64,000 bases of DNA from Rubricoccaceae bacterium (GTDB lineage Bacteria; Bacteroidota; Rhodothermia; Rhodothermales; Rubricoccaceae), in assembly GCA_033720695.1 (NCBI GenBank), contig JAWWCA010000001.1, positions 634 to 64,633 of the forward strand, in the 5' to 3' direction. Below, in pieces: positions 40,343 to 63,449 of this stretch; position 1 is the stretch's first letter; every line of letters begins with the position of its first letter. The translations under genes were made by a program, and so were the position numbers. The notes beneath the pieces were generated by a model. That model saw nothing but the letters and a program-made list of their open reading frames with translations, had not been told where the DNA came from and did no database searches.

Positions 40343-40347
40343 ATCCC

Positions 40348-40584
40348 ATGGCGACCCTCCCTCCCGCCATCCTCTCCGTCTTCGAAGCGGACGGACACCT
40401 CCAGCGCCTCTTCGTCCGAGGCCGCTGGCGCACCGTCCGCCGCGTCCTCGCCGCCTGGGTCGTCGAAGGACGCTGGTGGGGAACGCCGGAACGGCGCGAG
40501 TACGTCCGCCTCGAGGTCGACGGCCTCCTCCTCGAAGCCTACCGCACCGACGACGGGTGGCACCTCGCCGCCATCCTCGACTAG
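40348..40584 (+). CDS. small conserved-looking protein between imuB and dnaE2 (78 aa)
   Basis: ATG 40348 within artefactual ORF 39319..40584: MATLPPAILSVFEADGHLQRLFVRGRWRTVRRVLAAWVVEGRWWGTPERREYVRLEVDGLLLEAYRTDDGWHLAAILD. Separated by 5-nt and 4-nt gaps from its neighbours. It may correspond to a DUF seen next to imuB in other phyla, but I cannot verify that. Confidence 0.55.
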   Translation: MATLPPAILSVFEADGHLQRLFVRGRWRTVRRVLAAWVVEGRWWGTPERREYVRLEVDGLLLEAYRTDDGWHLAAILD

Positions 40585-40588
40585 CGTC

Positions 40589-43500: not shown

Positions 43501-43786
43501 GGTCATGTTCCTCACGCTCGAAGACGAGACCGGCTTCGTCCAGTGCGTCGTCCGGCCCGAGGTCCTCGAACGCCTCGACTGGGTGCTCCGCCAGGGGGCC
43601 CTCATCGTCGAGGGCCGCCTACACAGCACCGGGAATTGGCGCGGCCTCGTGCTCACCGATGCGTGGCCCCTCCACGGCATCTTCGGCGGCTACAGTGGCC
43701 ACCCCGACTGGGCCGGCGGCCGCGACACGCTCATCACGGCGCCGGACGCGGACCCTACGCCACCGCCGGAGGCCGTGCCGGCGTGA
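40589..43786 (+). CDS. dnaE2: error-prone DNA polymerase DnaE2 (ImuC)
   Basis: Track ORF, 1065 aa. PHP start MFVHLHARSWFSFRAGGSSPEAI...ALTDRHGVYG. Pol III alpha core (FLVVHEV..., GRGSAANSIVAYLLGIT, PDIDVDF). Length and context are typical of DnaE2. Confidence 0.93.
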   Translation: MFVHLHARSWFSFRAGGSSPEAIARAAAAAGQPAVALTDRHGVYGAVRFAKACLDAGVRPLYGAEVVVDGHALILLAGSNDGYEHLCHLLTRGQLRSREAPAVTLDELAHDAHDLWCLTGTDDSRLWDLLDHDRPRDALHWAGTLHDIFGPRLSVELAHRLVPGDDRRITRLLRLAQQANLPTVATNDVRHASREDYWRYDLLSCIREGLSVFEPHPARPTNAERFLADETTLRRRLPLPAALARACEIADACHVQLITGEVTPPAARLPPETDAATHLRTLCERGLAQRYGEPPPGRAREQLEHELAVITGHDLDEYFLVVHEVTAEARRRGIRCAGRGSAANSIVAYLLGITNVDPLAHRLLFERFLHRGRASTPDIDVDFDAERREEIIDWIEQRFGISQTAMTATVITYRLRSALRDAAKALGWPMDIVNRLGKAVPHAHAAAAPEHRVAVEQVVGPSPLAERLLQAAAGLEGCPRHLGQHSGGMVLSRTPLRAFTPVQVSANGVKVVQFDKDDVEALGLVKLDVLALRMLATVSEAAELVERHEGVRLDLDALPLDDTRTFNLIRAGRTLGCFQIESQGQLHLLAQAQPESFDDLITEIALFRPGPLQGNMVHPFVQRRRGNEPVAYDDPSLEPVLRDTYGVILFQEQVLEVAHAFAGMPLEEADAFRRLMSKFRSSDEMESMRGRFVAGAVGRGVPEPVAQSVFDRVSKFVGYGFCRSHAAAFAQTVYQSCYLKAHHPAAFMAAVMQHRPGMYSLMTLQEEARRCGVQTHPPDLARSGPRYDLEPHPRGWAIRMPLAAVRGLDAEDALALVWERLRRPFADLEDLWRRAPLGAAKLESLAQSGALDSLAASSRDALWTLGVLARRLGPPGQATAPTLFSAPVVDALDVPDLPPLTEAERLSWDLETHGAARYHPVRLVRRQLTELEIRPIATTLPLGRLGHPNAHPRLRVAGIVMLRQRPPTAKGVMFLTLEDETGFVQCVVRPEVLERLDWVLRQGALIVEGRLHSTGNWRGLVLTDAWPLHGIFGGYSGHPDWAGGRDTLITAPDADPTPPPEAVPA

Positions 43787-45176
43787 TCGAGGTCAACACC
43801 GACTCCGAGTCCGACGCGCCGTCGCCGCGACCGTCGAACAGCGGGCCCAGCACGCGCTCCGCGTCCTTCACGCCGTATACCGCCCCGCTCCGACTCGACT
43901 GCCACTCCGCGACGACGTCCGCGCATGCGTCGCGGTGGCGACTCAGCGCCTGGACGCGTCGGCAACGCCGGTCCCCGTCGAACGCCGTGATCCCGAGCAC
44001 GGTGTCCGCCGCAGCACCCAGGCGCCCCAGCCCGGCCACCGCCCCCGCGAGCCCGCCCGCGCCCACGTCCGCCGCCACGCTGACCACCACCGCCAGATCG
44101 CGCTCCGCCAGCGCCACGAGCGCTTCGACCACGTCGTCCGCGTCCTCTTCTCCTCGATGCCGAAAGTCGTCGAGACTGTCGATGATCACGAGCTTGATCC
44201 CGTCGCACACGCAGCGGCGGGCGAGGTCGTCCGTGAAGAGGCCCCACCGCATCCGGCCGACGTCCCGCGCCGACAGGAAACTCACGCTGTCCATGCGGTC
44301 ATCGTCGAGCCCCGCGTCGTCGATCGACCGACGAATCGACCGGTGTGACTGGCCCGTCAGATAGGCGACGCCGCTTCGACGGGTGTGCTCGTCCATAAAC
44401 GGGTTGCCCGATGCCACCGCAGCGGCCAGGTGCAGCAGCCACTGCGTCTTCCCCGACGTCTTTGGGGCGCCCAGCACCCCCGTCACGCTGCCCTGCATGG
44501 CCCATGGATAGGCCAGATACGGCAACGCCAGCTCCTCGTACGCGCGGAGCGCCCCACCGCTGCGGAACGGGGGGAGCCCGCCGGGCGGGACCGGCCCCTC
44601 GTGCGTCGACGGCGCGGCGATGCCCACGCGCTGTAGCAGGCTCGGCGGCACCTCGCGGGGACGCGCCTCGCTCGGGCGCACCTCCCAATACCGACCCCCT
44701 CGCACGCTCTCGTGCGAAGCGGGCAGCAGATGGGCCTCGCCACCGAGCACGAGCTCGACCCCGGGCGCGATCGCATAACGCTGCCCCACCACCTCGGGGT
44801 GGCGAAAGAGGTACCGCGTCGTACCCTCGGCCGCATCCACGAAGGCCGGCACCCGCGGCACCCGGAACACCCGCGCCAGGTCTCGCCAGTCCATCCGCCC
44901 ACCCTGGCCCACCTCCACCGCCGCCAGCCCCGCGCGCGCGCCGAGCGCCACGCCGGTCCTCGCCTCCTCCCAGAGGTCACCCCACGGGGCGACATTCAGC
45001 GGATCGGTCGCAACCTCCCCCACCCAGTCCTCGAACCGCGGATGTCGCCCAGGGTGCGGGCACCGGCGAGCCCCGCAGCTGCACCGGCCCACGTCGTCGA
45101 TGACGTGAAACGGGAGGACGGGGAGGCCCAGCGAGGCGTACGTCGAAGCGTCTCGAATCCAGACCGAGGTGGACAC
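43755..45176 (-). CDS. bifunctional primase-polymerase (PrimPol) N-terminal domain fused to RecA-like AAA ATPase (plasmid/ICE-type replicase)
   Basis: Track ORF 43755..45293. The likely start is GTG at 45176 (VSTSVWIRDASTYASLGLPVLPFH...), because 45177-45293 is AT-richer and looks non-coding. Zinc knuckle CSCGARRCPHPGRHP. P-loop GVLGAPKTSGKTQWLL and Walker B LVIIDSLDD. The 3' end overlaps the dnaE2 3' end by 32 nt. Confidence 0.78.
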   Translation of the reverse strand: MSTSVWIRDASTYASLGLPVLPFHVIDDVGRCSCGARRCPHPGRHPRFEDWVGEVATDPLNVAPWGDLWEEARTGVALGARAGLAAVEVGQGGRMDWRDLARVFRVPRVPAFVDAAEGTTRYLFRHPEVVGQRYAIAPGVELVLGGEAHLLPASHESVRGGRYWEVRPSEARPREVPPSLLQRVGIAAPSTHEGPVPPGGLPPFRSGGALRAYEELALPYLAYPWAMQGSVTGVLGAPKTSGKTQWLLHLAAAVASGNPFMDEHTRRSGVAYLTGQSHRSIRRSIDDAGLDDDRMDSVSFLSARDVGRMRWGLFTDDLARRCVCDGIKLVIIDSLDDFRHRGEEDADDVVEALVALAERDLAVVVSVAADVGAGGLAGAVAGLGRLGAAADTVLGITAFDGDRRCRRVQALSRHRDACADVVAEWQSSRSGAVYGVKDAERVLGPLFDGRGDGASDSESVLTSITPARPPAVA

Positions 45177-45310
45177 GCGGGAACGGGAGTCAGGGAAGGG
45201 GTGGGGGACTATCCCTAAGGCATTTCCTGATGCCCCGGGAGAATGACGATACGACTCCGGCAGCACTATGCGCAACCAAGTCAAACACAGCATGTGACGC
45301 GCTGTGTGCA

Positions 45311-45452: not shown

Positions 45453-46238
45453 ATGCGGATCGTCACCCTCGCCAACCTCAAGGGCGGAAGCGCCAAGACC
45501 ACCTCGGCGCTCTCCCTCGCAGCCGCCCTCGCCGCCTACGACCACGCCGTCCTCGCCATCGACCTCGACCCCCAGGCGTCGCTGACGACCTACGCGGGGG
45601 AGGACCCGGGGCCCGAAGCGGCCCGCCTCCTCGAAGGGCACCTCGATCACGCCATCAAGCCCACGCGCTGGTTCGCGCCCGCCAATCAGCGCTGCCCGCC
45701 TGCCGGGGAGCGGTCGGCCCTCCACATCGTCCGCGCCGACCGCTCCCTCGTCCGCCTCGAGCGAAATGCGCCCGCGCGCCTGGCCAACCACCTCGTCTCT
45801 CTCTTCCAGCACGTCGAGGACCAATACGACTATGCCTTCATCGACCCGCCGCCGCAGATGTCGGCGCTCGTCATGGCGGCACTCGCCGCATCCGATGACG
45901 TCTACGTGCCCATCGCGTGCGGGCGGGGGGCGCTCGATGGACTCAGCGATGTCGTCGAGATCACCCAGTCCTACGGCACGGCTCCCGTGACCGGCGCCTT
46001 CGTCACCCGCGTGAACGTGTCGAGCCACCACGACACCGCGCTCGCCACGCACGTCTCCGAAACATTCGGCGACAACGCGTTCGACACCTTCGTTCGTGAG
46101 ACCGTTCGCGCACGTGAAGCGGAGATGGCCCGCATTCCGCTGCCGGTCTTCGCCCCGGCCTCCACAGCAGCGCAGGACTACGGCCACCTCTCCTTTGAAG
46201 TCCGCCGCCGAACGGCGGCGGCCAACCCGACCGCGTAG
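45453..46238 (+). CDS. parA: ParA-family partition ATPase
   Basis: Track ORF, 261 aa: MRIVTLANLKGGSAKTTSALSLAAALA...AIDLDPQASL (deviant Walker A). Confidence 0.92.
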   Translation: MRIVTLANLKGGSAKTTSALSLAAALAAYDHAVLAIDLDPQASLTTYAGEDPGPEAARLLEGHLDHAIKPTRWFAPANQRCPPAGERSALHIVRADRSLVRLERNAPARLANHLVSLFQHVEDQYDYAFIDPPPQMSALVMAALAASDDVYVPIACGRGALDGLSDVVEITQSYGTAPVTGAFVTRVNVSSHHDTALATHVSETFGDNAFDTFVRETVRAREAEMARIPLPVFAPASTAAQDYGHLSFEVRRRTAAANPTA

Positions 46239-46241
46239 CCC

Positions 46242-46679
46242 ATGGCCAAGAAACGAACCGTCCGGCTCGCCGCCACGCCACCGGAGCTCCAGGAGAACAC
46301 CCACCCGGAGCCGCGACCCGGCAAGGTCCCGATCCGATCCGCACCCTCGGCCTTCCCGCGCGCACCGGAGACGCCCCCAGAAGCCGACGCCGTCCACGTC
46401 GCGCCGGCCGTCCCGCAGCTCGACGCCAGCGCGCGCGAACGCGACGCCTACTGGCGCGACGGCCGCGATACGATCCCACAGCAGGCCAACTACCGGATCC
46501 CACGGTGGCTCCACGACAAGCTGCGCTCGATCGCGCTGCACCTCGACGTAGACCAGACCGAGCTCGTCACCAAGGCGCTCGAACGGCTCGTCCGCGAGAT
46601 CGAGGCCGACCACGGCAGGTCGTTCCCGTACCTCCCGCGGAAAGGGGACTCCGAACGCGGCCCTAGCTACACCACCTAG
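46242..46679 (+). CDS. ParG/CopG-like ribbon-helix-helix partner of ParA (putative centromere-binding protein)
   Basis: Track ORF, 145 aa, 3 nt after the parA stop. Disordered N-terminus, then YRIPRWLHDKLRSIALHLDVDQTELVTKALERLVREIE (RHH pattern). Confidence 0.6.
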   Translation: MAKKRTVRLAATPPELQENTHPEPRPGKVPIRSAPSAFPRAPETPPEADAVHVAPAVPQLDASARERDAYWRDGRDTIPQQANYRIPRWLHDKLRSIALHLDVDQTELVTKALERLVREIEADHGRSFPYLPRKGDSERGPSYTT

Positions 46680-46689
46680 CGCGCCGGCC

Positions 46690-47406
46690 CCCGTAAACGG
46701 TCACCTCCTGCACGCAGAGAGGCTACGCCTGCGCCTGGAGCACGCCTTCCAGCCCCCGTAAACGGTCACCCCTCGTCCATCGCGAGCACTGCGAGAGCAC
46801 CCCCCGTAAACGATCACCTCCCTCATAAATCGACCAGATTCGCCGCTTTCACGCCACACCGGCCTGGGTCCGATGAGCGTCCCGGATCCGGTCACCTCGT
46901 CCCGTAAACGATCACCTCGTCCCGTAGACCTGCACTCCGCGTCCTGTAAGCGCGCACCTCGCGTCCCGTAGACTGTCACTCCGGCCCCCGTAGACCATCA
47001 CCCTGCACGCGGCTACATCACTGAATTTTAGGACGTTGCAGCTTGGCAAACAGTCTAAACCTCTCTCAAATCCATTCAAACGACGACGGCCCCCGTAAAC
47101 GGTCACCTCGCTCGCGCCGCGCCTTCGAGATGGCTAGGGACTGCCCGTTGGGCAGTATATGTACACCTATCAGTACCGAGGACGCGGTTGCACATAGACC
47201 AGTGCCACGTTGGCTGCCCACTGCCGGGCCTCGGCAGGCGTCGGCAACGGCACCAGGTGACCGTTTACGGGAAACAAACGGGGGGTGACCGTTTACGGGA
47301 CGGGCCGACCCAATATCCGTTATGCGTATAGGGGCTTTCCTGATCCCGGCGGCGATGACCGTTATGCACCCCGCAACCGCGCGCCCGGCAGGTGACCGTT
47401 TACGGG
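46690..47406. repeat. iteron array / candidate oriV
   Basis: CCCGTAAACGGTCACC-type repeats at 46690, 46755, 46803, 46901 and 47092. A tandem ~20-22-bp run lies at 46881, 46901, 46921, 46943, 46965 and 46987, with degenerate members (CCCGTAGAC...). The inverse orientation GGTGACCGTTTACGGG occurs at 47256, 47284 and 47391, with a degenerate copy near 47354. An AT-rich patch lies at about 47018-47090 and a DnaA-box-like TTATGCACC at 47362-47370. Confidence 0.8.
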
Positions 47407-47512
47407 ACGGCGACCGACCGATTTCAGGCCCGCGCTTGGACCTTCGCCAGCGCGCCCGTAACCTCCACGTGACACTCGCCGACACCCGTTCGCTCCCGTC
47501 CCCCCACCACGG

Positions 47513-48781
47513 ATGAATGGCCTCGCTCTCCGGAAGCACACCGGCGCCATCCACATCAAGGCGCCGCTGACGATGCTCCAGCGCAAGATCGCCAACGTCT
47601 TGCTGCTCAACGCCTACGACGAGCTCCCCGACCCCGCCGTCTCCGAGCACCAGATCTCGATCGGCCAGCTCGCCTCCGTCGCCGGCTTCGACTCCAACGA
47701 CTACGCCTACCTCCGCGACGCGCTCACGAGCCTCGTCGATCACAAGATCGAATGGAACATCCTCAACGATGGCAAGGCCGAGTGGGGCATCATGGCGTTC
47801 CTCTCACAGGCCTCCATCCGAGATGCCGTCTGCACCTACGCCTACCCACCGGTCCTGCGGCGAGAGCTCCACCACCCCCGCGTCTTCGCGGTCATCAATC
47901 TCAAGATCCAGGCGCGCTTGCGCAGCAGCTATGCCCTCGCGCTCTACGAAAACTGCGTCCGATACCGGCGCGTCCAGTCCACCGGGTTCCGCACCGTCGA
48001 GCTGTGGCGCGACCTCCTTGGCGTCGATGAGGGCGAATACCCCGAGTACAAGTACCTCAATCGCAGCGTGCTGAAGCCGGCCGTCCGAGAGGTCAACAAG
48101 AACACGGACATCCGCGTCCAGATGCACACGCTGAAGACGAAGGGCCGCATCACGCACCTCCGCTTCAGCGTTCACGACAACGAGGCGGCGCAAGGCGCCC
48201 TCGACGAGCCCGGCGACGACGTCCTCAACGGCAAACGCCTCCCCGACCCGCGCACGCTCGCGCCGAGCGTCGACGACCTCCTCAACGACCAGCAGATGGA
48301 GCTCCTCAGCTACGGGCTCACGCCGGCGCAGGTCATCGACCTCGGAACCGAGTACAACGCCGACCGCATCAAGCGAAACCTCGCCTACGTCGAACGCGAG
48401 ATCGGACTGGGCCGCATCCGCCGCGTCCCCGCCTTCGTCATCGCGGCCGTCCGAGACGACTACGCCGCCGCCGACGCGTCCGATGCGCGACGCCAACCGG
48501 TCGCCGCTGCCACCGACCGGCGGCGGGTCCAGCGGCAGGCCGAGGCCGATGCGGCCCAAGAGCGCGCCGAGCGACTCGAGGCAGCGTGGTCCCGCCTCTC
48601 GCCCGCGGAGCGCGCCCGCATCGACGACGCAGCCCTCGACCGCCTCCGCCGCGAGACGCCCTTCGTCTTCCGTAAGTACGAGGCCGAGTCGCGCGATGGC
48701 TCGCTCGGACCGGGCACGCAGGCGACCCTCCGCGCCCTCCGGTACGAGGAAATCGAACGCGCCGAAACGCAACAAACCTAG
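47513..48781 (+). CDS. Rep_3-type (RepA-like, iteron-binding) replication initiator
   Basis: Track ORF, 422 aa: ...LQRKIANVLLLNAYDEL ... LRSSYALALYENCVRYRR ... WRDLLGVDEGEYPEYKYLNRSVLKPAVREVNKNTDIRVQMHTLKTKGRITHLRFSV. This is the two-winged-helix initiator layout. It lies next to the iterons. Confidence 0.82.
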   Translation: MNGLALRKHTGAIHIKAPLTMLQRKIANVLLLNAYDELPDPAVSEHQISIGQLASVAGFDSNDYAYLRDALTSLVDHKIEWNILNDGKAEWGIMAFLSQASIRDAVCTYAYPPVLRRELHHPRVFAVINLKIQARLRSSYALALYENCVRYRRVQSTGFRTVELWRDLLGVDEGEYPEYKYLNRSVLKPAVREVNKNTDIRVQMHTLKTKGRITHLRFSVHDNEAAQGALDEPGDDVLNGKRLPDPRTLAPSVDDLLNDQQMELLSYGLTPAQVIDLGTEYNADRIKRNLAYVEREIGLGRIRRVPAFVIAAVRDDYAAADASDARRQPVAAATDRRRVQRQAEADAAQERAERLEAAWSRLSPAERARIDDAALDRLRRETPFVFRKYEAESRDGSLGPGTQATLRALRYEEIERAETQQT

Positions 48782-51389: not shown

Positions 51390-52202
51390 GTGCCCACCAA
51401 CGCCGACGTCGCCTCCCACCTCCGCGCCATCGCCGCGGCCCTCGAGCGCGAGGGCGCCAACCCCTACCGCATCGAGGCCTACCGGCGCGCGGCCGATGCG
51501 GTGGCGTCGCACCCCGACGCGATCGCCGCCATCGTCGCGCGCAACAAGGACGACCTCGTCGACCTGCCCGGCATCGGCAACGCGCTCGCCGCGGTGATCA
51601 TCGAGGTCGTCGAAACGGGAACGTCCACCACCCTCGATGGGCTCCAGGACCCCGACCGCGCCGTCCGCGCCCTCGCGTCCATCCCCGCCCTCGGACCCGT
51701 CCGCGCGAACCGCATTCACAAGACGCTTGGGGTCGACTCCCTCGACGACCTCGCCGCCGCTGCCGAGGATGGACGACTCCAGACCGTCCCCGGCATCGGG
51801 CCCGTCCTCGCCGCCCGCGTCGCCGACGCCGTCGGCGCCCGCACGGACCGCGCCGACCGTCCAACGGTGGCTGAGCTTCTTGACGTCGACGCCGAATACC
51901 GAACCCGGGCAGAAGCGGGGGACCTCCGACGCATCGCCCCGAAAGCCCACAACCCGACGGGGGAGGCGTGGCTCCCCATCCTCCACACCGCGCGGGGACC
52001 AAGGCGCTACACCGCCCTCTTCTCTAACACCGCGCGCGCGCACGAGCTGGACAAGACGCGCGACTGGGTCGTGATCTACCTCGACGACCCCGACCGCGAC
52101 GCGCAATGGACCGTCGTGACGGGTGCGAGCGGCGCACTCGCCGGACGCCGCGTCGTACGGGGCCGAGAAGGGGAGACGCGCGCGCACCTCGCGGAGGCGT
52201 AG
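51390..52202 (+). CDS. PolX N-terminal-like helix-hairpin-helix protein lacking the polymerase palm
   Basis: Track ORF, 270 aa. NADVASHLRAIAAALEREGANPYRIEAYRRAA and two HhH motifs (LPGIGNALA, VPGIGPVLA) parallel the PolX N-terminus at 31637. The C-terminus is an unrelated ~90-aa domain (RIAPKAHNPTGEAWLPILHTARGPRRYTALFSNTARAHELDKTRDWVVIY). Confidence 0.72.
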   Translation: MPTNADVASHLRAIAAALEREGANPYRIEAYRRAADAVASHPDAIAAIVARNKDDLVDLPGIGNALAAVIIEVVETGTSTTLDGLQDPDRAVRALASIPALGPVRANRIHKTLGVDSLDDLAAAAEDGRLQTVPGIGPVLAARVADAVGARTDRADRPTVAELLDVDAEYRTRAEAGDLRRIAPKAHNPTGEAWLPILHTARGPRRYTALFSNTARAHELDKTRDWVVIYLDDPDRDAQWTVVTGASGALAGRRVVRGREGETRAHLAEA

Positions 52203-53823: not shown

Positions 53824-53834
53824 CAGCAGGGGAA

Positions 53835-53885
53835 GGGGAGAGGTGGGGCAGGAGAGGGGAGAGGTGGGGCAGGAGAGGGGAGAGG
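53835..53885. repeat. 2.4 copies of a 21-bp purine-rich tandem repeat GGGGAGAGGTGGGGCAGGAGA
   Basis: Copies at 53835-53855 and 53856-53876, with a partial copy at 53877-53885. On the minus (coding) strand it is a C/T tract directly upstream of the GNAT start. Confidence 0.85.
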
Positions 53886-54490: not shown

Positions 54491-55555
54491 ATGGATCCCC
54501 TCCTCTCCGTCGACCCCTGCGGCCTCTACTGCGCAGCGGGCGACTTCCACGTCGACCCCTGGCGACCCGTCCCGCGCGCCGTCGTCACCCATGCCCACGG
54601 CGACCACCTCACCCGTGGCTGCGGCCGATACCTCGTCGCCCACGACGGCCGAACCGTCACGGCCGTCCGCCTCGGCAGCGACGCCCGCATCCAGACGGCG
54701 CCGTACGGCGAGACGCTCTCGATCAACGGCGTCACCGTCTCCCTCCACCCGGCCGGTCACATCCTCGGATCGGCCCAGGTCCGCATCGAGCACGCGGGCC
54801 ACGTCGCCGTCGTCACCGGCGACTTCAAGGCCGCGCCCGGCGCCACCGCGGCCGCCTTCGAGCCCGTCCCCTGCCACACGCTCGTCCCCGAGAGCACCTT
54901 CGCGCTCCCCATCTACCGCTGGCCCGACGAAGCCCTCGTCGCCGCCGACATCGCGGCGTGGTGGGACGACGCACGCCAGCGCGGTCGCACCGCCGTCCTC
55001 TTCGCCTATGCCCTCGGCAAAGCCCAGCGCCTCCTCGCCCTCCTCCCCGACCCTCTCCCGGGGCCCGTCTTCACCCACGGCGCCGTCGAACGACTCACCG
55101 AGGCCTACCGCCACGCCGGCGTCCATCTCCCGCGCACGCACCATGCCTCGTCCTACCGCGCCGACAACCCCGACCACGCCGGCGCGCTCGTCGTCGCTCC
55201 GCCGTCGACCCGCGCCTCGCCCTGGCTCCGTCGGTTCGGGGACGTGACCACCGCCTTCGCCAGCGGATGGATGCGCGTCCGCGGAACCCGCCGACGACGC
55301 GCCGTCGACCGGGGCTTCGTGCTCTCCGACCACGCCGACTGGCCCGGACTCCTCCGCGCCATCGAGGCCACCGGCGCCGAACGCGTGCTCCCGACCCACG
55401 GTTACACCGAGGTCCTCGCACGGTGGTGCCGCGAGTGCGGCCTCGACGCCGAACCGCTCCCAACGGCCTATGCCGCCACCCTCGACGACGAGGAGGCCAC
55501 CCCCACCCTCGACGACGAGGCCCACGACACCGGCGACGACGAGGCCACACCGTGA
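54491..55555 (+). CDS. ligase-associated DNA damage response exonuclease (metallo-beta-lactamase fold)
   Basis: Track ORF, 354 aa: AVVTHAHGDHL (HxHxDH) ... LHPAGHILGSAQ ... VVTGDFK. First gene of the ligase-associated cluster. Confidence 0.88.
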   Translation: MDPLLSVDPCGLYCAAGDFHVDPWRPVPRAVVTHAHGDHLTRGCGRYLVAHDGRTVTAVRLGSDARIQTAPYGETLSINGVTVSLHPAGHILGSAQVRIEHAGHVAVVTGDFKAAPGATAAAFEPVPCHTLVPESTFALPIYRWPDEALVAADIAAWWDDARQRGRTAVLFAYALGKAQRLLALLPDPLPGPVFTHGAVERLTEAYRHAGVHLPRTHHASSYRADNPDHAGALVVAPPSTRASPWLRRFGDVTTAFASGWMRVRGTRRRRAVDRGFVLSDHADWPGLLRAIEATGAERVLPTHGYTEVLARWCRECGLDAEPLPTAYAATLDDEEATPTLDDEAHDTGDDEATP

Positions 55556-57156
55556 CCTCGTTCACCGACCTCTACCACGCGCTCGATGGGACCACGCGCA
55601 CCAGCGAGAAGCGCGCCCTCCTCACCGACTACTTCCGCGAGGCCCCCCCCGAGGACGCCGCCTGGGCCGTCTTCTACCTCTCCGGCCAGCGCCTGAAGGG
55701 CCTCGTCCGATCCGGCCTCCTCCGCCAGTGGGCCGCCGAGGTCGCCGACGTCCCCGATTGGCTCTTCGACGAGGCCTACAACGCCGTGGGCGACCTCGCC
55801 GAAACCATCGCGCTCCTCCTCCCCGACGCCGAGGCCCACGCCCAGCTCCCCCCCCTCCACCGCCTCATCGACGAGTGGGTCGCACCCCTCCGGACCGCCA
55901 CCGACGACGAACGGCGCCAGCGCGTCGCCGCGGCATGGGGCGCGCTCCCCGCCGACGCCCGCTTCGTCTACAACAAGCTGCTCCGCGGAGGCTTCCGCGT
56001 CGGCGTCTCGAAGCGAACCGTCACCGCCGCCGTCGCCGAGGCCGCCGGACTCGATACCGCCGTCGTCGCCCTCCGCCTCATGGGCGACTGGAAGCCCTCC
56101 GCCGAGGCGTTCCAGCGCCTCATCGCGCCCGACGAGGGAGAGGCCGACACCGCTAGACCCTACCCCTTCTTCCTCGCGCACCCCCTCGAGGGCCCACCCG
56201 ACGAGCTCGGTCCGGTCACCGACTGGCTCGCCGAAGAGAAGTGGGACGGCGTCCGCGCCCAGATCGTCCGCCGCGACGGGCAGACCTTCCTCTGGAGCCG
56301 CGGCGAGGACGAGGTCGCCTTCCGCTTCCCGGAGATCGCGGACGCGGCCCACGCTCTCCCGGACGGCACCGTCCTCGACGGCGAAATCGTCGGATGGCGG
56401 GACGGCCGCCTCCTCCCGTTCACCGAGCTCCAGCGACGCCTCAACCGCGTCTCCGTCTCCGCTCGCCTCCTCAGCGACGTCCCCGTCCGCCTCTTCGCCT
56501 TCGATGTCCTCGAACGCGACGGCAGCGACCTCCGACAACGCCCCCTCGCCGAGCGACGACGCGCCCTCCACGCCCTCCTGCCCGACGACGGCCTGGGGCC
56601 CATCGTCCCCGCCCCGACCGTGCCCGCCGGCTCCTGGGAGGCCCTCGCCGAGCACCGCGCCACCAGCCGCGATCGCGGCGTCGAGGGGCTCATGCTCAAG
56701 CGCCGGACCAGCCCCTACCGCGTCGGACGACCCCGCGGCGACTGGTGGAAGTGGAAGGTCGAGCCCCTCACCTTCGACGCCGTCCTCGTCTACGCACGCC
56801 CCGGAACCGGCCGACGCGCCTCGCTCTTCACCGACCTCTCGTTCGCGGTCTGGCGCGGCGACGAACTCGTCAAAATCGCCGACGCCTACTCCGGCCTCAC
56901 CGACGCCGAGTTCCGAGAGCTCTCCCGCTTCGTCCGCCGCAACACGACCGAGCGCTTCGGGCCCGTCCGCGCCGTCACCCCCACCCGCGTCTTCGAGCTC
57001 GCCTGCGAGGGCGTCAACCCCTCCAAACGCCACAAGGCCGGCGTCGCCGTCCGCTTCCCCCGCATCGTCCGCGCCCGCCCCGACAAGACGCCCCAACAGG
57101 CCGATTCCCTCGACACCGTGCGCGCCCTCGCAGGCCTCGATTCCGACACGACCTAG
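55552..57156 (+). CDS. ATP-dependent DNA ligase (ligase-associated cluster type)
   Basis: GTG 55552 within artefactual ORF 54958..57156, overlapping the previous stop (GTGA): VTSFTDLYHALDGTTRTSEKRALL ... EEKWDGVRAQI (KxDG) ... EGLMLKR ... WWKWKV. Confidence 0.9.
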   Translation: MTSFTDLYHALDGTTRTSEKRALLTDYFREAPPEDAAWAVFYLSGQRLKGLVRSGLLRQWAAEVADVPDWLFDEAYNAVGDLAETIALLLPDAEAHAQLPPLHRLIDEWVAPLRTATDDERRQRVAAAWGALPADARFVYNKLLRGGFRVGVSKRTVTAAVAEAAGLDTAVVALRLMGDWKPSAEAFQRLIAPDEGEADTARPYPFFLAHPLEGPPDELGPVTDWLAEEKWDGVRAQIVRRDGQTFLWSRGEDEVAFRFPEIADAAHALPDGTVLDGEIVGWRDGRLLPFTELQRRLNRVSVSARLLSDVPVRLFAFDVLERDGSDLRQRPLAERRRALHALLPDDGLGPIVPAPTVPAGSWEALAEHRATSRDRGVEGLMLKRRTSPYRVGRPRGDWWKWKVEPLTFDAVLVYARPGTGRRASLFTDLSFAVWRGDELVKIADAYSGLTDAEFRELSRFVRRNTTERFGPVRAVTPTRVFELACEGVNPSKRHKAGVAVRFPRIVRARPDKTPQQADSLDTVRALAGLDSDTT

Positions 57157-57221: not shown

Positions 57222-57722
57222 ATGCACTACCTCGACGACTACCTGACGCACGCCCTCGGTGCCGCGCTCAACGCCGCACGCGAACTCGGCGAGGCCGTCG
57301 CCGCCCACGTCGACCTCGTCCACGACGACGACGTGCGCCACAACGTCGAGGAGGCCGGCGCGCTCATGGACGAACACGTCGACATCGTCGACGCGCTCCT
57401 CCGCGAGGGCGGCCACGCCGTCGAATGGGAGCCCTCCCGCCCCGTCAGCGCGCTCTTCGAAGAGCTCGACATCGCCCTCGAGGTGATCGCCGCTCCCGAG
57501 CTCTCCGATGCCGCCGTCCTCGCGGCCACCCACGCCGCCCTCCACGTCGTCCGCGCCACCTACGCCGGCATCCGTTGCCAGGCCGCCCACCTCGGGCGGT
57601 ACGACGTCGTCCGCGACCTCGACCTCGCCCTCTCCGACAGCGACACCGCCATCGCGGCGCTCCACGGCATTACCGAGACGTGCCTCGGACGCGCCCTCCG
57701 TCGCTCGAGCGCACCGGCGTGA
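57222..57722 (+). CDS. divergent DUF892-like protein inserted in the ligase-associated operon
   Basis: ATG 57222 within artefactual ORF 56241..57722. HYLDDYLTHALGAALNAAREL ... HAALHVVRATYAGIRCQAAHLGRYDVVRDLDLALSDSDTAIAAL aligns by eye with the DUF892 gene at 20407. Its stop overlaps the helicase GTG (GTGA). Confidence 0.5.
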   Translation: MHYLDDYLTHALGAALNAARELGEAVAAHVDLVHDDDVRHNVEEAGALMDEHVDIVDALLREGGHAVEWEPSRPVSALFEELDIALEVIAAPELSDAAVLAATHAALHVVRATYAGIRCQAAHLGRYDVVRDLDLALSDSDTAIAALHGITETCLGRALRRSSAPA

Positions 57723-60160
57723 GCACATCGCTCGCACCCCCGCTCGCGGCGTGGTTCGAGGCGCGGGGATGGACCCCGCTCCCGTTCCAGAACGAGGTGC
57801 GCGAACGCTACCGCGACGGGCAGTCCGGCCTCATCCACGCCGCCACGGGCTCCGGGAAAACGCTCGCGGCCTGGGGCGCCGTCCTGGACAACGCCCTCCG
57901 ATCCGGCCGTGACGCCACCGACGAGCCCCTCGCGCTCTGGATCACCCCGCTCCGCGCCCTCGCCGTCGACACCACCCGCGCCCTCCTCGAGCCGGTCCAG
58001 GACCTCGACCTCGCCTGGCGCGTCGAGCGGCGAACCGGAGACACCGCCGCCGCCGTCAAAACGCGGCAACGCCACGCGCTCCCCACCGCCCTCGTCACCA
58101 CGCCCGAGAGCCTCTCGCTCCTCCTCACCTACCCCCGCACGGCCGAGCAGCTGGCCTCGCTCGAAGCCGTCGTCATCGACGAGTGGCATGAGCTCCTCGG
58201 ATCCAAGCGCGGAACCCTCGTCCAGCTCGCCCTCGAACGGCTACGCGCCTACAGCCCCGCCCTCCGCGTCTGGGGCATCTCCGCCACCCTGGGAGACCTC
58301 GGCGAAGCCCGCGACGTCCTCCTCGGCCCGGGCCGCGACGGCGCCCTCGTCGAGGGGCCGCCCGCCCGCCCCCTCCACCTCGACACCGTCGTCCCCGACG
58401 ACGTCGGGCGCTTCCCGTGGGCCGGACACCTCGGCCTGCACCTCGCCGAGGCCGTGGCCGACGTCGTCGACGAAGCCGCTTCCGCCCTCGTCTTCGTCAA
58501 CACCCGCGCGCAGGCCGAGCGGTGGTACCAGGCCATGCGCTTCTTCCGCCCCGACTGGGGCGACGCCCTCGCCATCCACCACGGCGCGCTCTCGCGCGCC
58601 CAGCGCCGGGCCGTCGAGGCCGGCATCCGCGACGGCGCCGTCCGATGCGCCGTCTGCACCTCCTCGCTCGACCTCGGCGTCGATTTCCCGCCCGTGGACC
58701 ACGTCGTCCAGATCGGCTCCGCCAAGGGCGTCGCTCGCCTCCTCCAGCGCGCCGGGCGCTCCGGACACCAGCCAGGGCGGCCCGCGCGACTCACCCTCGT
58801 GCCCACCCACGCCTTCGAGCTCGTCGAAGCCGAAGCCGCACGCACCGCCGTCGCCCAAGGCGACCTCGAACAGCCACGACCCCCAGACCTCCCCCTCGAC
58901 GTCCTCATCCAGCACATGGTCACCGTCGCGTGTGGCGACGGCTTCACGGCCGACGGACTCTACGACGAGGTCCGCCGAACCTGGGCCTTCCGCGACCTCG
59001 AACGCGACGCCTTCGACGGCGCCCTCGACTTCGCCGTCCGAGGCGGAGACGCGCTCAACGCCTACGAGGAATATCACCGCATCGTCTACTTCCGCGACCT
59101 CTACCGCGCCGCCTCCTCCGAGGCCGTCCGCCGCCACCGGATGTCCATCGGCGTCATCGTCGGCGACGGCCACGTCGACGTCAAGTACGTCCGCGGCCGC
59201 AAGCTCGGCTCCGTCCCCGAGTCCTTCCTCGCCCGCCTCTCCCGCGGCGACACCTTCCTCCTCGGTGGCCGCGCCCTCACGCTCGTCCGCGTCCGCGACA
59301 TGACCGCCTACGTCCGACGCGCCGCCGCCGGCACCCCCGCCGTCCCCCGCTACGCCGGCGGCCTCCTCCCGCTCTCGCGCGAGCTCGCGACCGCCGTCCG
59401 AGACGTCCTCGGCGACGTCGCCCACGGCCACCCGCCCGACGCCCCGGAAATCGACGCGCTCGACCGCCTCTTCCGACTCCAACAGCGCTGGTCCACCGTC
59501 CCACGCGCCGACCAGACCCTCATCGAGCGCACCCGCACGCGCGAGGGCCACCACCTCTTCCTCTACCCCTTCGCCGGCCGCCTCGTCCATGAGGGCCTCG
59601 CCGCCCTCGTCGCCCTCCGCCTCGCCCGCCGCCAGCCCGTCACCTTCAGCCTCTCGGCTACCGACTACGGCCTCGAACTCCTCGCCGCCGACCCCGTCCC
59701 CCTCGAGCCCGACACCGCCGCCGAGCTGTTCTCCCCCGACCACCTCGAGCAGGACCTCCACGACGCGCTCAACGAGTCGGAGCTCGCCCGGCGCCAGTTC
59801 CGGGAGGTCGCGCGCATCGGCGGCCTCGTGTTCACCGGGTACCCGGGCTCCCGCACCGTCCGGCAACTCCAGGCCTCCGCCGGCCTCATCCACGACGTCC
59901 TCGCCCGCCATGAGCCCGACCACCTCCTCCTCGCCCAGGCCCGCCGCGAGGTCCTCGAACGCCAACTCGACCGGCCCCGGATCGCCGACACCCTCCGCGC
60001 CATCCAGGCCAGCAGCCTCCTCATCATCGACACCCCCCGCCTCACGCCCTTCGCCTTCCCCATTCTCACCAACCGCCTCCGCGAAAAGGTGTCGTCCGAG
60101 AAGGCCCGCGACCGCATCAAGCGGCTCGCGGCGCAGCTCGAGCGCGCGGCCGACAGGTGA
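57719..60160 (+). CDS. ligase-associated DNA damage response DEXH-box helicase (Lhr-like)
   Basis: GTG 57719 within artefactual ORF 56504..60160: PFQNEVRERYRDGQSGLIHAATGSGKTLAAW (motif I), VVIDEWHEL (DEWH), VFVNTRAQAE, TSSLDLGVD, QRAGRSGH (motif VI). Confidence 0.92.
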   Translation: MSTSLAPPLAAWFEARGWTPLPFQNEVRERYRDGQSGLIHAATGSGKTLAAWGAVLDNALRSGRDATDEPLALWITPLRALAVDTTRALLEPVQDLDLAWRVERRTGDTAAAVKTRQRHALPTALVTTPESLSLLLTYPRTAEQLASLEAVVIDEWHELLGSKRGTLVQLALERLRAYSPALRVWGISATLGDLGEARDVLLGPGRDGALVEGPPARPLHLDTVVPDDVGRFPWAGHLGLHLAEAVADVVDEAASALVFVNTRAQAERWYQAMRFFRPDWGDALAIHHGALSRAQRRAVEAGIRDGAVRCAVCTSSLDLGVDFPPVDHVVQIGSAKGVARLLQRAGRSGHQPGRPARLTLVPTHAFELVEAEAARTAVAQGDLEQPRPPDLPLDVLIQHMVTVACGDGFTADGLYDEVRRTWAFRDLERDAFDGALDFAVRGGDALNAYEEYHRIVYFRDLYRAASSEAVRRHRMSIGVIVGDGHVDVKYVRGRKLGSVPESFLARLSRGDTFLLGGRALTLVRVRDMTAYVRRAAAGTPAVPRYAGGLLPLSRELATAVRDVLGDVAHGHPPDAPEIDALDRLFRLQQRWSTVPRADQTLIERTRTREGHHLFLYPFAGRLVHEGLAALVALRLARRQPVTFSLSATDYGLELLAADPVPLEPDTAAELFSPDHLEQDLHDALNESELARRQFREVARIGGLVFTGYPGSRTVRQLQASAGLIHDVLARHEPDHLLLAQARREVLERQLDRPRIADTLRAIQASSLLIIDTPRLTPFAFPILTNRLREKVSSEKARDRIKRLAAQLERAADR

Positions 60161-60171
60161 CCGTTTACGGG
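60156..60171. repeat. orphan iteron copy GGTGACCGTTTACGGG on the helicase/pdeM junction
   Basis: A perfect 16-mer. With flanks, 60154-60174 (CAGGTGACCGTTTACGGGACG) is identical to 47389-47409, the rep-proximal iteron. It contains the helicase stop TGA (60158-60160) and a possible GTG start (60157). Confidence 0.85.
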
Positions 60172-60180
60172 ACGACCATC

Positions 60181-60831
60181 GTGAACGACTGCTCCATCTC
60201 GATCGCCGGCCAAGCCCTCCGCCTCCTCCCTGAGCGCGCCGTCTTCTGGCCCGCCGCCGGCGCCCTCCTCGTCGCCGACCTCCACGCCGACAAGCCCGAA
60301 ACCCTGCGCGCCGCCCACATCGCTGCGCCGGCCTCCGCCCTCGAAACGGACCTCCAGCGCCTCTCCAGCGCGCTCCACCGCACACGCGCCCACCGGCTCG
60401 TCATCCTCGGCGACCTGTACCACGCGCCACGCGGTGCCGACGCGCCCGTCACCGCCCGCGCCCTCCACCGCTGGCGCCGCGCCCACGCCGCTCTCGAGAT
60501 CGACCTCGTCGTAGGCAACCATGACCGCCGCGCAGGACCACCCCCGGAGACCCTCGCCATCCGCTCCCACGCCGACGCCCTCGACCTCCAGCCCTTCCGG
60601 CTCGTCCACGAACCCGCCCCCGACCCCGCCGGATACGTCCTCGCCGGACACGTCCACGCCGGCGTCCGCCTCGCCGCCGGCGCCGACGCCGTCACCGTGC
60701 CCGCGTTCCGCTTCGGACCCGCCGTCGGCGTCCTCCCCTCCTTCGGCGCCTTGACCGCCCCCGCGCCCACGCCGCCGCACCCCTCGGAGCGCATCTACGC
60801 CATCGCCGACGACGAGGTCATCCCGCTCTGA
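60181..60831 (+). CDS. pdeM: ligase-associated DNA damage response endonuclease PdeM (metallophosphoesterase)
   Basis: Track ORF 60157..60831. The start is either GTG 60157 or GTG 60181. ...LLVADLHADK ... LVILGDLYHA ... VVGNHD ... VLAGHVH, the calcineurin-like motifs in PdeM order. Confidence 0.85.
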   Translation: MNDCSISIAGQALRLLPERAVFWPAAGALLVADLHADKPETLRAAHIAAPASALETDLQRLSSALHRTRAHRLVILGDLYHAPRGADAPVTARALHRWRRAHAALEIDLVVGNHDRRAGPPPETLAIRSHADALDLQPFRLVHEPAPDPAGYVLAGHVHAGVRLAAGADAVTVPAFRFGPAVGVLPSFGALTAPAPTPPHPSERIYAIADDEVIPL

Positions 60832-62113: not shown

Positions 62114-62359
62114 TTAAGCCGCCGAGCGGGCCGACGCCGAGCGGGGCGCCTTCCGGAGGCCAACAGCCGATTCCACCAGATGCCCCGCCCCAAGCAGCAT
62201 GCCGACCGACGCCGCCGTCTCCCGCGGCGCGAGCCCCGCCCGGTCTGCCGCGAGCGCGATGTCCCACACGGCCAGCTCCCCATCCGGCAGCTCGCGCAGG
62301 AGCCGGGCCGCAGCCTCAGCAACCCCGCCGTGGTCCGGTCGAATCGTCGAGGAGAGCAT
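62114..62359 (-). CDS. hypothetical small protein (81 aa, winged-helix-like feel)
   Basis: ATG at 62359 within track ORF 62114..62458: MLSSTIRPDHGGVAEAAARLLRELPDGELAVWDIALAADRAGLAPRETAASVGMLLGAGHLVE... High third-position GC is kept to its stop. Confidence 0.4.
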   Translation of the reverse strand: MLSSTIRPDHGGVAEAAARLLRELPDGELAVWDIALAADRAGLAPRETAASVGMLLGAGHLVESAVGLRKAPRSASARSAA

Positions 62360-62522
62360 GGCGCAGATGAGAGACGAGAAGGGTAGGCGCGCGCCCCGCA
62401 TGCCGTCAACATGTGCAGGACACGTCCACACGCGCATAGATAAACGATCCAAACACAAACCGATATCGCTTGATCCCGGTCCGGTCGTTCGCTATGCTCC
62501 TGTGAACCGACCGCCCAGCCCC

Positions 62523-63449
62523 ATGGAAACAGCCACGCACCCCCTCGTCTCCGTCGGCCGCACCATCCCGGCCACGCCGCCCGACGTCTTCCACGCCTGG
62601 ACCACCCCCGACCTCCTCGAGAAGTGGTTCGCACCCACCGTCGAGTACGACGCCCACGTCGTCGCGCTCGACCCCCGCGTCGGCGGCGCCTACCGCACCG
62701 AGATGCGGCACGAACTCGGCGCCAACCACACCATGTCCGGCGAGTACCGGGCCGTCGACCCGCCCCACGGGCTCACCTTCACGATGGACGGCCATGAGGG
62801 CGACCCCCCGTCCACAGTCGAAGTGAGAATCGCGACCCACCAGGACGGCGCCCACGTCACGCTCACCCAGACGGGCCTCGCCTCCGACGACGAGGCCGAC
62901 CGCCACGCGGAAGGGTGGGACGGCTTCCTCTGGCGACTCGCCAACACGTTCGAACCGACCACCGCGTACCACCGCGCGCTCGTCCTCGCCCTCCACCGTC
63001 GCCTCTTCGCCAACGCCCTCGAAGGGTTGGACGACGACCTCGACCGGCGCCTCGCCGCCGCCAATGACGCCCGGTGGATCGCCGCCCACCTCGCACAGTC
63101 GCGCGCAGGACTCGCCGCCATGCTCGGCGCCCCCATCGACCACCCCCTCCAGGCCTTCGCCGACGCCGTCCCCGACGACACCCCCACGCCCGACGCCGAG
63201 ACCATCCGCCGGGTCTTCGCCGAGGCCTCCCACGCCGTCTACCGCGGCCTCCAGCACGCCTCCGACCAAGACCTCGCCGGACCCCCGCCGTTCACCATCC
63301 CCATGCGGGCCCAAACCCTCCTCGCGGCCGTCGACTTCCTCGTCAGCCACGAGGCGTACCACATCGGGCAACTCGGTCTCCTCCGGCGGGCGCTCGGCTA
63401 TCCCGCCATGCGATACGACCACCACGGCGACGGACGCGACGACCGTTGA
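62523..63449 (+). CDS. SRPBCC (AHSA1-like) domain fused to a DinB_2-like domain
   Basis: ATG 62523 within track ORF 62199..63449. N-terminal half: VFHAWTTPDLLEKWFAP ... GGAYRTEMRH ... GEYRAVDPPHGLTFT ... GWDGFLWRL. C-terminal half: ...WIAAHLAQSR ... FLVSHEAYHIGQLGLLRRALG. Confidence 0.78.
   Translation: METATHPLVSVGRTIPATPPDVFHAWTTPDLLEKWFAPTVEYDAHVVALDPRVGGAYRTEMRHELGANHTMSGEYRAVDPPHGLTFTMDGHEGDPPSTVEVRIATHQDGAHVTLTQTGLASDDEADRHAEGWDGFLWRLANTFEPTTAYHRALVLALHRRLFANALEGLDDDLDRRLAAANDARWIAAHLAQSRAGLAAMLGAPIDHPLQAFADAVPDDTPTPDAETIRRVFAEASHAVYRGLQHASDQDLAGPPPFTIPMRAQTLLAAVDFLVSHEAYHIGQLGLLRRALGYPAMRYDHHGDGRDDR

Follow-up and report, generated by a model that had tools for sequence, protein, structure and literature searches.

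The 64,000-nucleotide (nt) stretch of DNA analyzed here (positions 634 to 64,633 of contig JAWWCA010000001.1, from a Rubricoccaceae bacterium; hereafter, the window) carries the origin and the initiator gene of an iteron-type Rep3 replicon and, 12.7 kb from that origin, a single additional full iteron, CAGGTGACCGTTTACGGGACG, which lies in the junction between the helicase and pdeM genes of a DNA repair operon. Judged by its sequence, this orphan is a genuine, non-chance copy of the Rep3 iteron and a predicted first-rate Rep site. The features on which the argument depends are the following, from left to right along the window:

45453..46679, plus strand: ParA ATPase gene (45453-46238) and a small open reading frame (ORF) of 145 amino acids
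46690..46818, minus strand: three single iterons downstream of the par genes (46690, 46755 and 46803)
46878..47004, minus strand: tandem array of about six partly degenerate iterons with 20-22-bp spacing (repeat families D1-D3)
47011..47107, minus strand: A+T-rich stretch, a likely unwinding element, and its flanking iteron (47092-47107), which has a CGTCGTCGT tail; relatives share this module
47254-47274, 47282-47302 and 47389-47409, plus strand: the three rep-proximal iterons, in the orientation of rep and of the orphan
47513..48781, plus strand: Rep3-family initiator with WH1 and WH2 (Pfam Rep3_N, 58.7 bits, cutoff 22.4; Rep3_C, 51.5 bits, cutoff 21.1)
57719..60160, plus strand: ligase-associated DEXH-box helicase (TIGR04121, about 1046-1047 bits, cutoff 850)
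60154..60174, plus strand: orphan full iteron (matrix scan and 21-nt identity)
60157..60180, plus strand: extra in-frame 24-nt segment GTGACCGTTTACGGGACGACCATC, bounded by GTGA overlaps at 60157-60160 and 60181-60184
60181..60831, plus strand: pdeM, encoding the ligase-associated phosphoesterase (TIGR04123, 184 bits, cutoff 150)

Direct comparison showed that the orphan is identical at 21 of 21 nt to the rep-proximal iteron at 47389-47409 on the same strand and that it contains the perfect 16-bp core GGTGACCGTTTACGGG, which is also found at 46690, 46755 and 47092 on the minus strand and at 47256, 47284 and 47391 on the plus strand (the orphan core starts at 60156); the original prediction had claimed both the identity and the shared core, and its coordinates proved exact. 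Together with its immediate flanks (60152-60175, GACAGGTGACCGTTTACGGGACGA), the orphan matches the 24-nt family consensus at 23 positions. When the window was scanned with a position matrix derived from 92 origin iterons of 12 related origins, the window's own included, the orphan obtained the top score of the whole window (37.1 bits, compared with 32.6 bits for the best origin copy); in simulated sequence, the maxima obtained with the same matrix averaged 8 bits and did not exceed 19 bits. The window and both ends of the source scaffold (L039, L059) together represent the full 67,699-bp scaffold, in which a search for further copies detected exactly one outside the origin, namely, the orphan. 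It does not belong to the phased origin array and has no neighbouring copies, and is accordingly classified as an extra-origin site.

It is extremely improbable that the orphan is due to chance, to a coding coincidence involving the peptide VTVYG, or to an assembly artefact at the 21-mer. Isolated 17- and 18-mers of the iteron do arise by chance in coding DNA, as exemplified by a match within a type IX secretion system (T9SS) protein (L028), and 21 nt is a common k-mer length of assemblers. However, in 100 shuffles, zero matches were expected even when three mismatches were allowed, and the 38 stretches that contain the 17-mer core in 596 Gb of genomes consist of 6 related plasmid loci and 32 unrelated single matches. 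The latter set an empirical background of approximately 5e-11 per bp, or only about 4e-6 copies per 67.7-kb scaffold, in agreement with the earlier claim that such a recurrence is very unlikely to be a matter of chance. The other dispersed, non-paralogous exact repeats of this 72%-GC window reach a maximum of 18-19 nt and are GC-rich codon strings. A coding coincidence is further disfavoured by the lack of the VTVYG peptide in the homologues and by the rare codons that encode it. As for an artefact, both the ENA scaffold L039 (67,699 bp) and the Logan contig L040 contain the very same junction, with 99.88% identity to the window in either case, and an identical PdeM was found in a third sample; because the same junction, with natural gene neighbours on both sides, appears in independent assemblies, the 21-mer is not an assembler artefact. 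The match in L028, which resides on another contig of the Rubricoccaceae metagenome-assembled genome that contains the related origin L029, was considered as a potential second orphan and rejected as a chance coding match inside a T9SS repeat protein. Megablast searches of PLSDB with the junction and with the ori/rep region produced no match, viral contigs, scanned for exact iterons, had none, and the databases contain no close plasmid relative, the next PdeM and the next Rep being at most 57% and 56% identical, respectively.

The junction itself bears the marks of a derived segment. The last arginine codon of the helicase (AGG, 60155-60157) and its TGA stop (60158-60160) are inside the iteron, and a GTG at 60157 opens a 224-amino-acid PdeM ORF, so that this part of the original prediction, which had placed the orphan on the stop/start junction, holds. 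For the start codon of pdeM, a correction is due: the GTG at 60181 is the better-supported start, given that all PdeM homologues of the aligned set (214-231 amino acids) align from it, that the NCBI call P0001 (216 amino acids) begins there, and that the eight N-terminal residues added by the upstream GTG, MTVYGTTI, have no counterpart in 16 homologues (alignment A1). With this start favoured, the iteron may occupy a 20-nt spacer and not the beginning of the pdeM coding sequence. In the closest relatives of the operon (PdeM 54-57% identical, the same DUF892-helicase-PdeM order), the helicase stop and the PdeM start overlap by 4 nt (GTGA); the 24-nt segment is not present in these relatives, and its deletion (60157-60180) restores the canonical 4-nt overlap known from them. 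The helicase of the window ends with ...ERAADR*, and the relatives run two or six residues longer. The conserved arginine is encoded by AGG, which accounts for 2.2% of the arginine codons, versus CGC or CGG in the relatives, and the GTT within the segment is used for 2.5% of the valine codons. Because of these rare codons, the N-terminal extension without a homologue and the 4-nt overlap in the relatives, the sequence of the junction is imposed by the iteron and not by the proteins; both genes survive because the GGTGACC of the iteron provides a stop and a potential start.

Short microhomologies accompany the segment. The junctions of the relatives, GTGACCGG and GTGACGGG, have 5-7 nt in common with the left half of the iteron, and to the left of the 21-mer, 11 of 15 nt also match the copy at 47389, a pattern that would be compatible with templated insertion or short patch conversion. 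Scans for sigma-70-type promoters and for terminators at the junction and at the origin found nothing, and an Rfam scan of the whole window identified no family.

The main origin, with about 13 iterons between 46690 and 47409, combines an initiator with WH1 and WH2 domains, direct repeats of 17-22 bp and an A+T-rich region, the makeup of an iteron-type Rep3 theta replicon. The A+T-rich stretch includes the lowest-GC 60-mer of the window (47021-47080, 40% GC), and the initiator additionally shows a weak match to the WH2 domain of RepE (1REP). The product of 47513-48781 is the presumed iteron-binding protein, as suggested by the distribution of the motif. Exact-pattern scans of genomes and metagenomes, combined with protein look-ups, recovered the 12 origins that were used for the matrix (L002, L029, L035, L038, L046, L049, L052, L054, L061-L063 and the window). 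The Rep homologues of these origins are 34-56% identical, and in each, the core (consensus GAAAGGTGACCGTTTACGGGACGA) is located directly upstream of rep in 22-bp arrays, which adjoin an A+T-rich stretch. No ParA or ParB homologues were found near the motif in the related origins, and no copy is present in the par operon that L063 carries 15 kb from its origin. A ParB-like small protein was evaluated as an alternative binder and rejected because the motif tracks Rep3, not the par genes.

Directly before rep, the relatives have half iterons arranged as an inverted repeat (AAAGGTGAT...ATCACCTTT), which is the operator that dimers classically bind in Rep3 systems. Such a repeat (AGGTGAT...ATCACCT) was not seen before rep in the window and is present in L061 and L063; likewise, the window contains only DnaA boxes with two mismatches, and a perfect box is found in L061 and L063. 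Both elements are common but not universal in the Rep3 family. In the relatives, the module consists, on the strand of rep, of an iteron, TCGTCGTCG, an A+T-rich stretch, a 22-bp array, a perfect DnaA box, the half-iteron inverted repeat and rep (L063:17639-18019, L061:8110-8622, L035:676-1216); in the window (46690-47409), the iteron, the A+T-rich stretch and the array are inverted relative to rep, and three rep-oriented full iterons take the place of the DnaA box and the operator. In the RepE, pi and RepA systems, initiator monomers use WH1 and WH2 to bind full iterons (PMC4980987).

Two further observations concern the replicon and its iteron. The GC skew of the plus strand is strongly negative throughout (about -0.2 for the whole window and between -0.05 and -0.34 for individual genes) regardless of gene orientation, with no switch at the iteron origin or anywhere else in the window; in related plasmid loci, it is close to 0. 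The negative skew could reflect unidirectional replication or another strand-asymmetric process. The iteron core GTTTACGGG contains TTACGG, a hexamer common to the 29/39-mer inhibitory sites of RctB of Vibrio cholerae, the central domains of which are Rep3-like (PMC11711613); this may be a coincidence or may attest to deep conservation of WH-domain specificity.

The orphan has counterparts in related plasmids. A perfectly conserved copy of the iteron was detected upstream of the TrbL gene in three short Rhodothermales contigs (L008, L027 and L045), and because these copies precede TrbL, its relatives on longer contigs were examined. Rep3 plasmids that carry a type IV secretion system (T4SS), namely, L061, L062 and L063 with its near-copies L064 and L065, possess an origin cluster before rep and, in addition, single full iterons 7-11 kb from the origin, at syntenic places of the T4SS operon. 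The positions of the stray iterons are:

L061: 914 and 4267
L062: 2690, 3706, 6041 and 7788
L063: 9901, 13073 and 14752
L008 (short contig): 733
L027 (short contig): 2340
L045 (short contig): 99 and 1059

One of these sites is at or upstream of trbL, with no more than one mismatch, and forms the longest invariant block of the alignment across six lineages (A6); a weaker, inverted copy lies upstream of it. Another site, about 110-190 nt into the called trbI gene, stands out as an island of identity in a hypervariable, indel-rich 5' region (A4). Additional copies are found immediately past the trbL stop in L062 and L045 and, restricted to L062 and L063, in the coupling-protein gene, the latter being weak evidence since L062 and L063 are close relatives. 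Shuffling gave an expectation per T4SS locus of 0 copies at no more than one mismatch, about 0.01 at no more than two, and 0.14-0.3 at no more than three. Among homologous T4SS operons without a Rep3 gene in the 21 kb read, L066 contains one weak copy and L067 none. In L066, which resides beside an RPA-type initiator, trbL and its preceding gene have a 4-nt overlap, whereas the Rep3 plasmids have a 250-nt spacer with the iteron at this position.

A more distant case comes from the complete Pseudomonas putida plasmid pND6-2 (NC_018746.1; L070, L068), the Rep of which is 39% identical and the iteron of which, AAAGGTGAACGTTTATGGGG, is homologous. This plasmid has 17 iterons in the origin, two just past rep (92,803 and 92,927) and a remote cluster of three (59,552-59,672), 31 kb from the origin, within a 187-nt spacer that precedes a string of genes leading to a DEAD/DEAH helicase and dnaB; zero chance copies are expected at two or fewer mismatches. 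The Sagittula plasmid p2 (Rep 40% identical), considered in full, is uninformative, since the small number and the degeneracy of its iterons preclude a reliable scan. Collectively, these comparisons indicate that stray full iterons are a habit of this Rep3 lineage and that the orphan is apparently the same phenomenon in a different operon; with the T4SS sites and the pND6-2 cluster as comparative support, a Rep site outside the origin is plausible.

The surroundings of the stray trbL site show two peculiarities of their own. The spacer upstream of trbL (L063:9753-9900, and likewise L008, L027, L045, L062 and L061; A6) contains five or six direct repeats of approximately GCAGGATCACGRCAG, with a spacing of about 19-22 nt; the series is conserved between lineages and stops at the Rep iteron, and the repeats may be binding sites of a transfer regulator or an oriT-related site. 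The flanks of the orphan, CGACAGG...GGGACGACCATCG (60145-60185), resemble those of the trbL-upstream site, CGAAAGG...GGGACGAC-ATCG (L063:9889-9925); for this likeness, with a rough p of 1e-3 to 1e-2, chance, an extended site class and shared origin are all conceivable.

We tentatively favour, with somewhat less than even confidence, an interpretation in which the orphan is an auxiliary site for Rep monomers that sequesters Rep and can pair with the origin iterons through looping or handcuffing. A short templated event, in the form of either an insertion or a patch conversion spanning roughly 20-24 nt, would have put the site in the one tolerant spot of the helicase-pdeM junction, where the GGTGACC supplies an in-frame TGA and a GTG. 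We infer that Rep binds the site, as well as the direction of the effect: Rep monomers would be expected on the orphan whenever they are on the origin, and the orphan would then sequester initiator and pair with origin iterons either of the same plasmid, through a 12.7-kb loop in cis, or of another plasmid copy in trans. Thus, it would behave as a small auxiliary control iteron, with replication control at a distance as the most likely consequence and a possible side effect on transcription or on translational coupling into pdeM. Because the orphan is a full iteron, the monomer-bound form, sequestration and pairing are favoured over dimer repression. External initiator sites that titrate the initiator and inhibit replication are documented for RctB in V. 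cholerae (PMC3937223, PMC11711613).

Several considerations weigh against this interpretation. One site added to about 13 in the origin changes the titration capacity little, and mutation of the external RctB sites of V. cholerae has mostly minimal effects (PMC11711613), which cautions against counting on a large phenotype. The next Rep and PdeM relatives, at the identity levels noted above, are too distant to show whether the orphan is conserved, and the stray sites, being located at gene starts and junctions, would be just as well explained by a transcriptional role or may simply mark where 20 nt are tolerated. Moreover, scans for the exact 17- and 18-mers, which miss variant iterons, found no second off-origin copy in four larger related contigs (553, 231, 96 and 34 kb); the lineage sample is small; and L066 and L067 were read over 21 kb of their 100-118-kb contigs, elsewhere on which a Rep3 gene may lie.

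The transcriptional role just mentioned would make the orphan a Rep-dependent operator or roadblock, with Rep at the junction cutting read-through into pdeM or occluding an internal promoter; this is the main rival, a possible but, on the whole, unlikely alternative, under which the last gene of the repair operon would be tied to the initiator level and Rep would be a plasmid-wide regulator of transfer and replication genes in the relatives. The placement of the orphan on the coding strand, 6 nt before the favoured pdeM start, and oriented like the rep-proximal iteron that lies some 105 nt ahead of rep, would suit such a role, as would the positions of the sites in the relatives: upstream of trbL, where a 250-nt spacer that also holds other conserved repeats has a regulatory look and is replaced by a 4-nt overlap in the RPA-type L066; in the 5' parts of trbI and of the coupling-protein gene; and, in pND6-2, in the spacer upstream of genes leading to dnaB. 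However, the junction has no promoter- or terminator-like signal nearby (in a scan of the sigma-70 type only), the classical autorepression of Rep3 systems involves dimers on inverted half-iterons rather than a single full iteron, and single DNA-bound proteins are usually weak roadblocks. RctB sites in promoters, too, have little or no transcriptional effect (PMC11711613). It is likewise doubtful that the orphan is a selectively neutral passenger, that is, a recent templated insertion or short gene conversion in a tolerant linker that Rep may bind without anything depending on it. Such an origin would account for a single, lineage-specific copy that the nearest operon relatives lack, located where 24 nt cost nothing, and the perfect match is compatible with youth; the microhomology at the flanks, with GTGA on both sides in addition to the 5-7 nt of iteron in the junctions of the relatives and the 11 of 15 matching nt on the left, points the same way. 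What speaks against neutrality is that the orphan is the best consensus match of the window and that comparable sites persist at syntenic positions in diverged relatives, as conservation islands in variable DNA, which argues that selection keeps such sites in this lineage.

Readings in which the orphan is a relic or an origin in its own right fare far worse. A lone iteron far from a multi-iteron array formally resembles the R6K arrangement, in which the alpha and beta origins are activated by looping to the main array; however, the vicinity of the orphan is coding DNA of 60-85% GC with no unwinding element and no DnaA box at one or fewer mismatches, and the GC skew does not change throughout the window, which makes a distant secondary origin very improbable. 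The suggestion that the orphan is the scar of a recombination event that joined the operon to the replicon, or else the remnant of a second, decayed origin, has nothing in its favour but the position in cargo DNA, 12.7 kb from the origin; taken together, these options are even less probable. Near the orphan there are no degenerate iterons, no A+T-rich stretch and no DnaA box. The scar is refuted because the adjacency of helicase and PdeM, with the 4-nt overlap, is ancestral in the closest relatives: the orphan is internal to the operon, and relatives retain, to either side of it, the DUF892-helicase-PdeM order and the stop/start overlap.

Extra-origin sites of DnaA and RctB, rep-adjacent control iterons of F and P1, and the lone distant iteron at the alpha and beta origins of R6K are already known. 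In RK2 (IncP-1), KorB binds about a dozen OB sites that are spread over the replication, transfer and stability operons, providing plasmid-wide coordination; the likeness is in the spread sites of one plasmid-maintenance protein, with the difference that KorB is a ParB that recognizes a palindrome as opposed to the asymmetric initiator iterons here. R6K alpha and beta reportedly involve a single iteron or half iteron located kilobases from the seven-iteron gamma array and reached through pi-mediated looping. These origins come with an initiation region of their own, whereas the orphan lacks both an A+T-rich element and a DnaA box. The control iterons of F (incC) and P1 (incA) are likewise outside the minimal origin, bind Rep, pair with origin iterons and lower the copy number; unlike the orphan, which is single and distant, they are multi-iteron clusters that flank rep rather than lone sites kilobases away in cargo DNA, and the two copies just past rep in pND6-2 are closer to them than the orphan is. 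Bridging has been described for incC of F (PMC11711613).

The chromosome 2 RctB sites of V. cholerae, such as chrII-10 and other peaks of chromatin immunoprecipitation, and crtS on chromosome 1, are similar in being iteron-like sites far from the origin. Some of the external sites of RctB, which has Rep3-like WH domains, are inside genes or promoters, and the chrII locus titrates the initiator and inhibits replication (PMC3937223, PMC11711613). RctB, however, is a four-domain chromosomal initiator that uses Dam-dependent 12-mers and separate 29/39-mers, with minimal effects for most of the extra sites, whereas we are dealing with a plain Rep3 plasmid in which the external site is a perfect full iteron at an operon junction. 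DnaA boxes outside oriC (datA, DARS and promoter boxes) contribute to titration and gene regulation (PMC3937223) and are similar in that they are dispersed initiator sites; DnaA, though, is a chromosomal AAA+ initiator of another protein family.

The operon that hosts the orphan is a complete ligase-associated DNA damage response operon, with four of the four signature proteins above the NCBIfam cutoffs, adjacent and co-directional, in the order exonuclease, ligase, DUF892, DEXH helicase and PdeM. The DUF892 gene ahead of the helicase is also found in P0002, the closest PdeM relative. In addition to the helicase and pdeM, the operon includes:

54491-55555, plus strand: exonuclease (TIGR04122, 457 bits, cutoff 325)
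55552-57156, plus strand: ATP-dependent ligase (TIGR04120, 593 bits, cutoff 400)
57222-57722, plus strand: DUF892 protein, between ligase and helicase

Most of the cargo is devoted to DNA damage and stress functions (window 40343-45293, 51390-52202 and 62199-63449, and genes of L059). It includes a DnaE2-type polymerase (40343-43786), PrimPol and AAA_25 (43755-45293, minus strand), a stand-alone 270-amino-acid protein corresponding to the N-terminal part of PolX (HHH_8/HHH_5; 51390-52202), a photolyase-related DPRP, DinB/AHSA1 proteins, many genes of the glyoxalase/bleomycin-resistance fold, and EgtD. At the left end of the scaffold, a gene for a terminase large subunit (Terminase_6N/6C; L059:52-1401) extends to about position 62 of the window, and the element may be a phage-plasmid or carry a prophage remnant. 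The two scaffold ends do not overlap in a test for circularity, and the replicon is not closed; the window contains no T4SS. Short tandem repeats were also noted, namely, about four copies of GTCTTCTTCGCGGCC with a 15-nt period and AGGGGAGAGGTGGGGCAGGAG-like units spaced by 21 nt (27029-27085 and 53834-53885, from the list of exact repeats).

In textbook iteron plasmids, initiator sites are found only in and beside the origin, and a review states that plasmid initiators, unlike RctB, "bind solely to iterons" at the origin (PMC11711613). In the incomplete library of literature that we searched, there was no description of single, perfect full iterons in cargo and transfer operons of ordinary Rep3 plasmids that are conserved along a lineage. 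The iteron in a cargo operon, the conserved stray sites of the T4SS and the pND6-2 cluster suggest that ordinary Rep3 initiators may work at a distance, possibly through titration, looping and handcuffing, or gene regulation. The orphan is also an example of how a stop/start overlap can accommodate a 20-nt protein-binding site with neither gene damaged. A broader idea, which we put forward as speculative and rather unlikely in its full extent, is that the Rep3 initiator doubles as a plasmid-wide coordinator, from Rhodothermota plasmids to Pseudomonas plasmids of the pND6-2 type, with the stray sites constituting a Rep regulon or a distributed copy-control network. Single full iterons at operon junctions and the 5' ends of genes, so far in repair, conjugative-transfer and replication-gene operons, would couple the initiator level to operon expression, to replication timing or to both, and new nodes would be acquired via short templated insertions at stop/start overlaps of the GTGA type. 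Plasmid pND6-2 offers a cultivable model for the study of extra-origin iterons. If Rep3 initiators do act at a distance, copy-number control, incompatibility and the expression of cargo and transfer genes would be linked in a way that has not yet been considered for this very large plasmid family.

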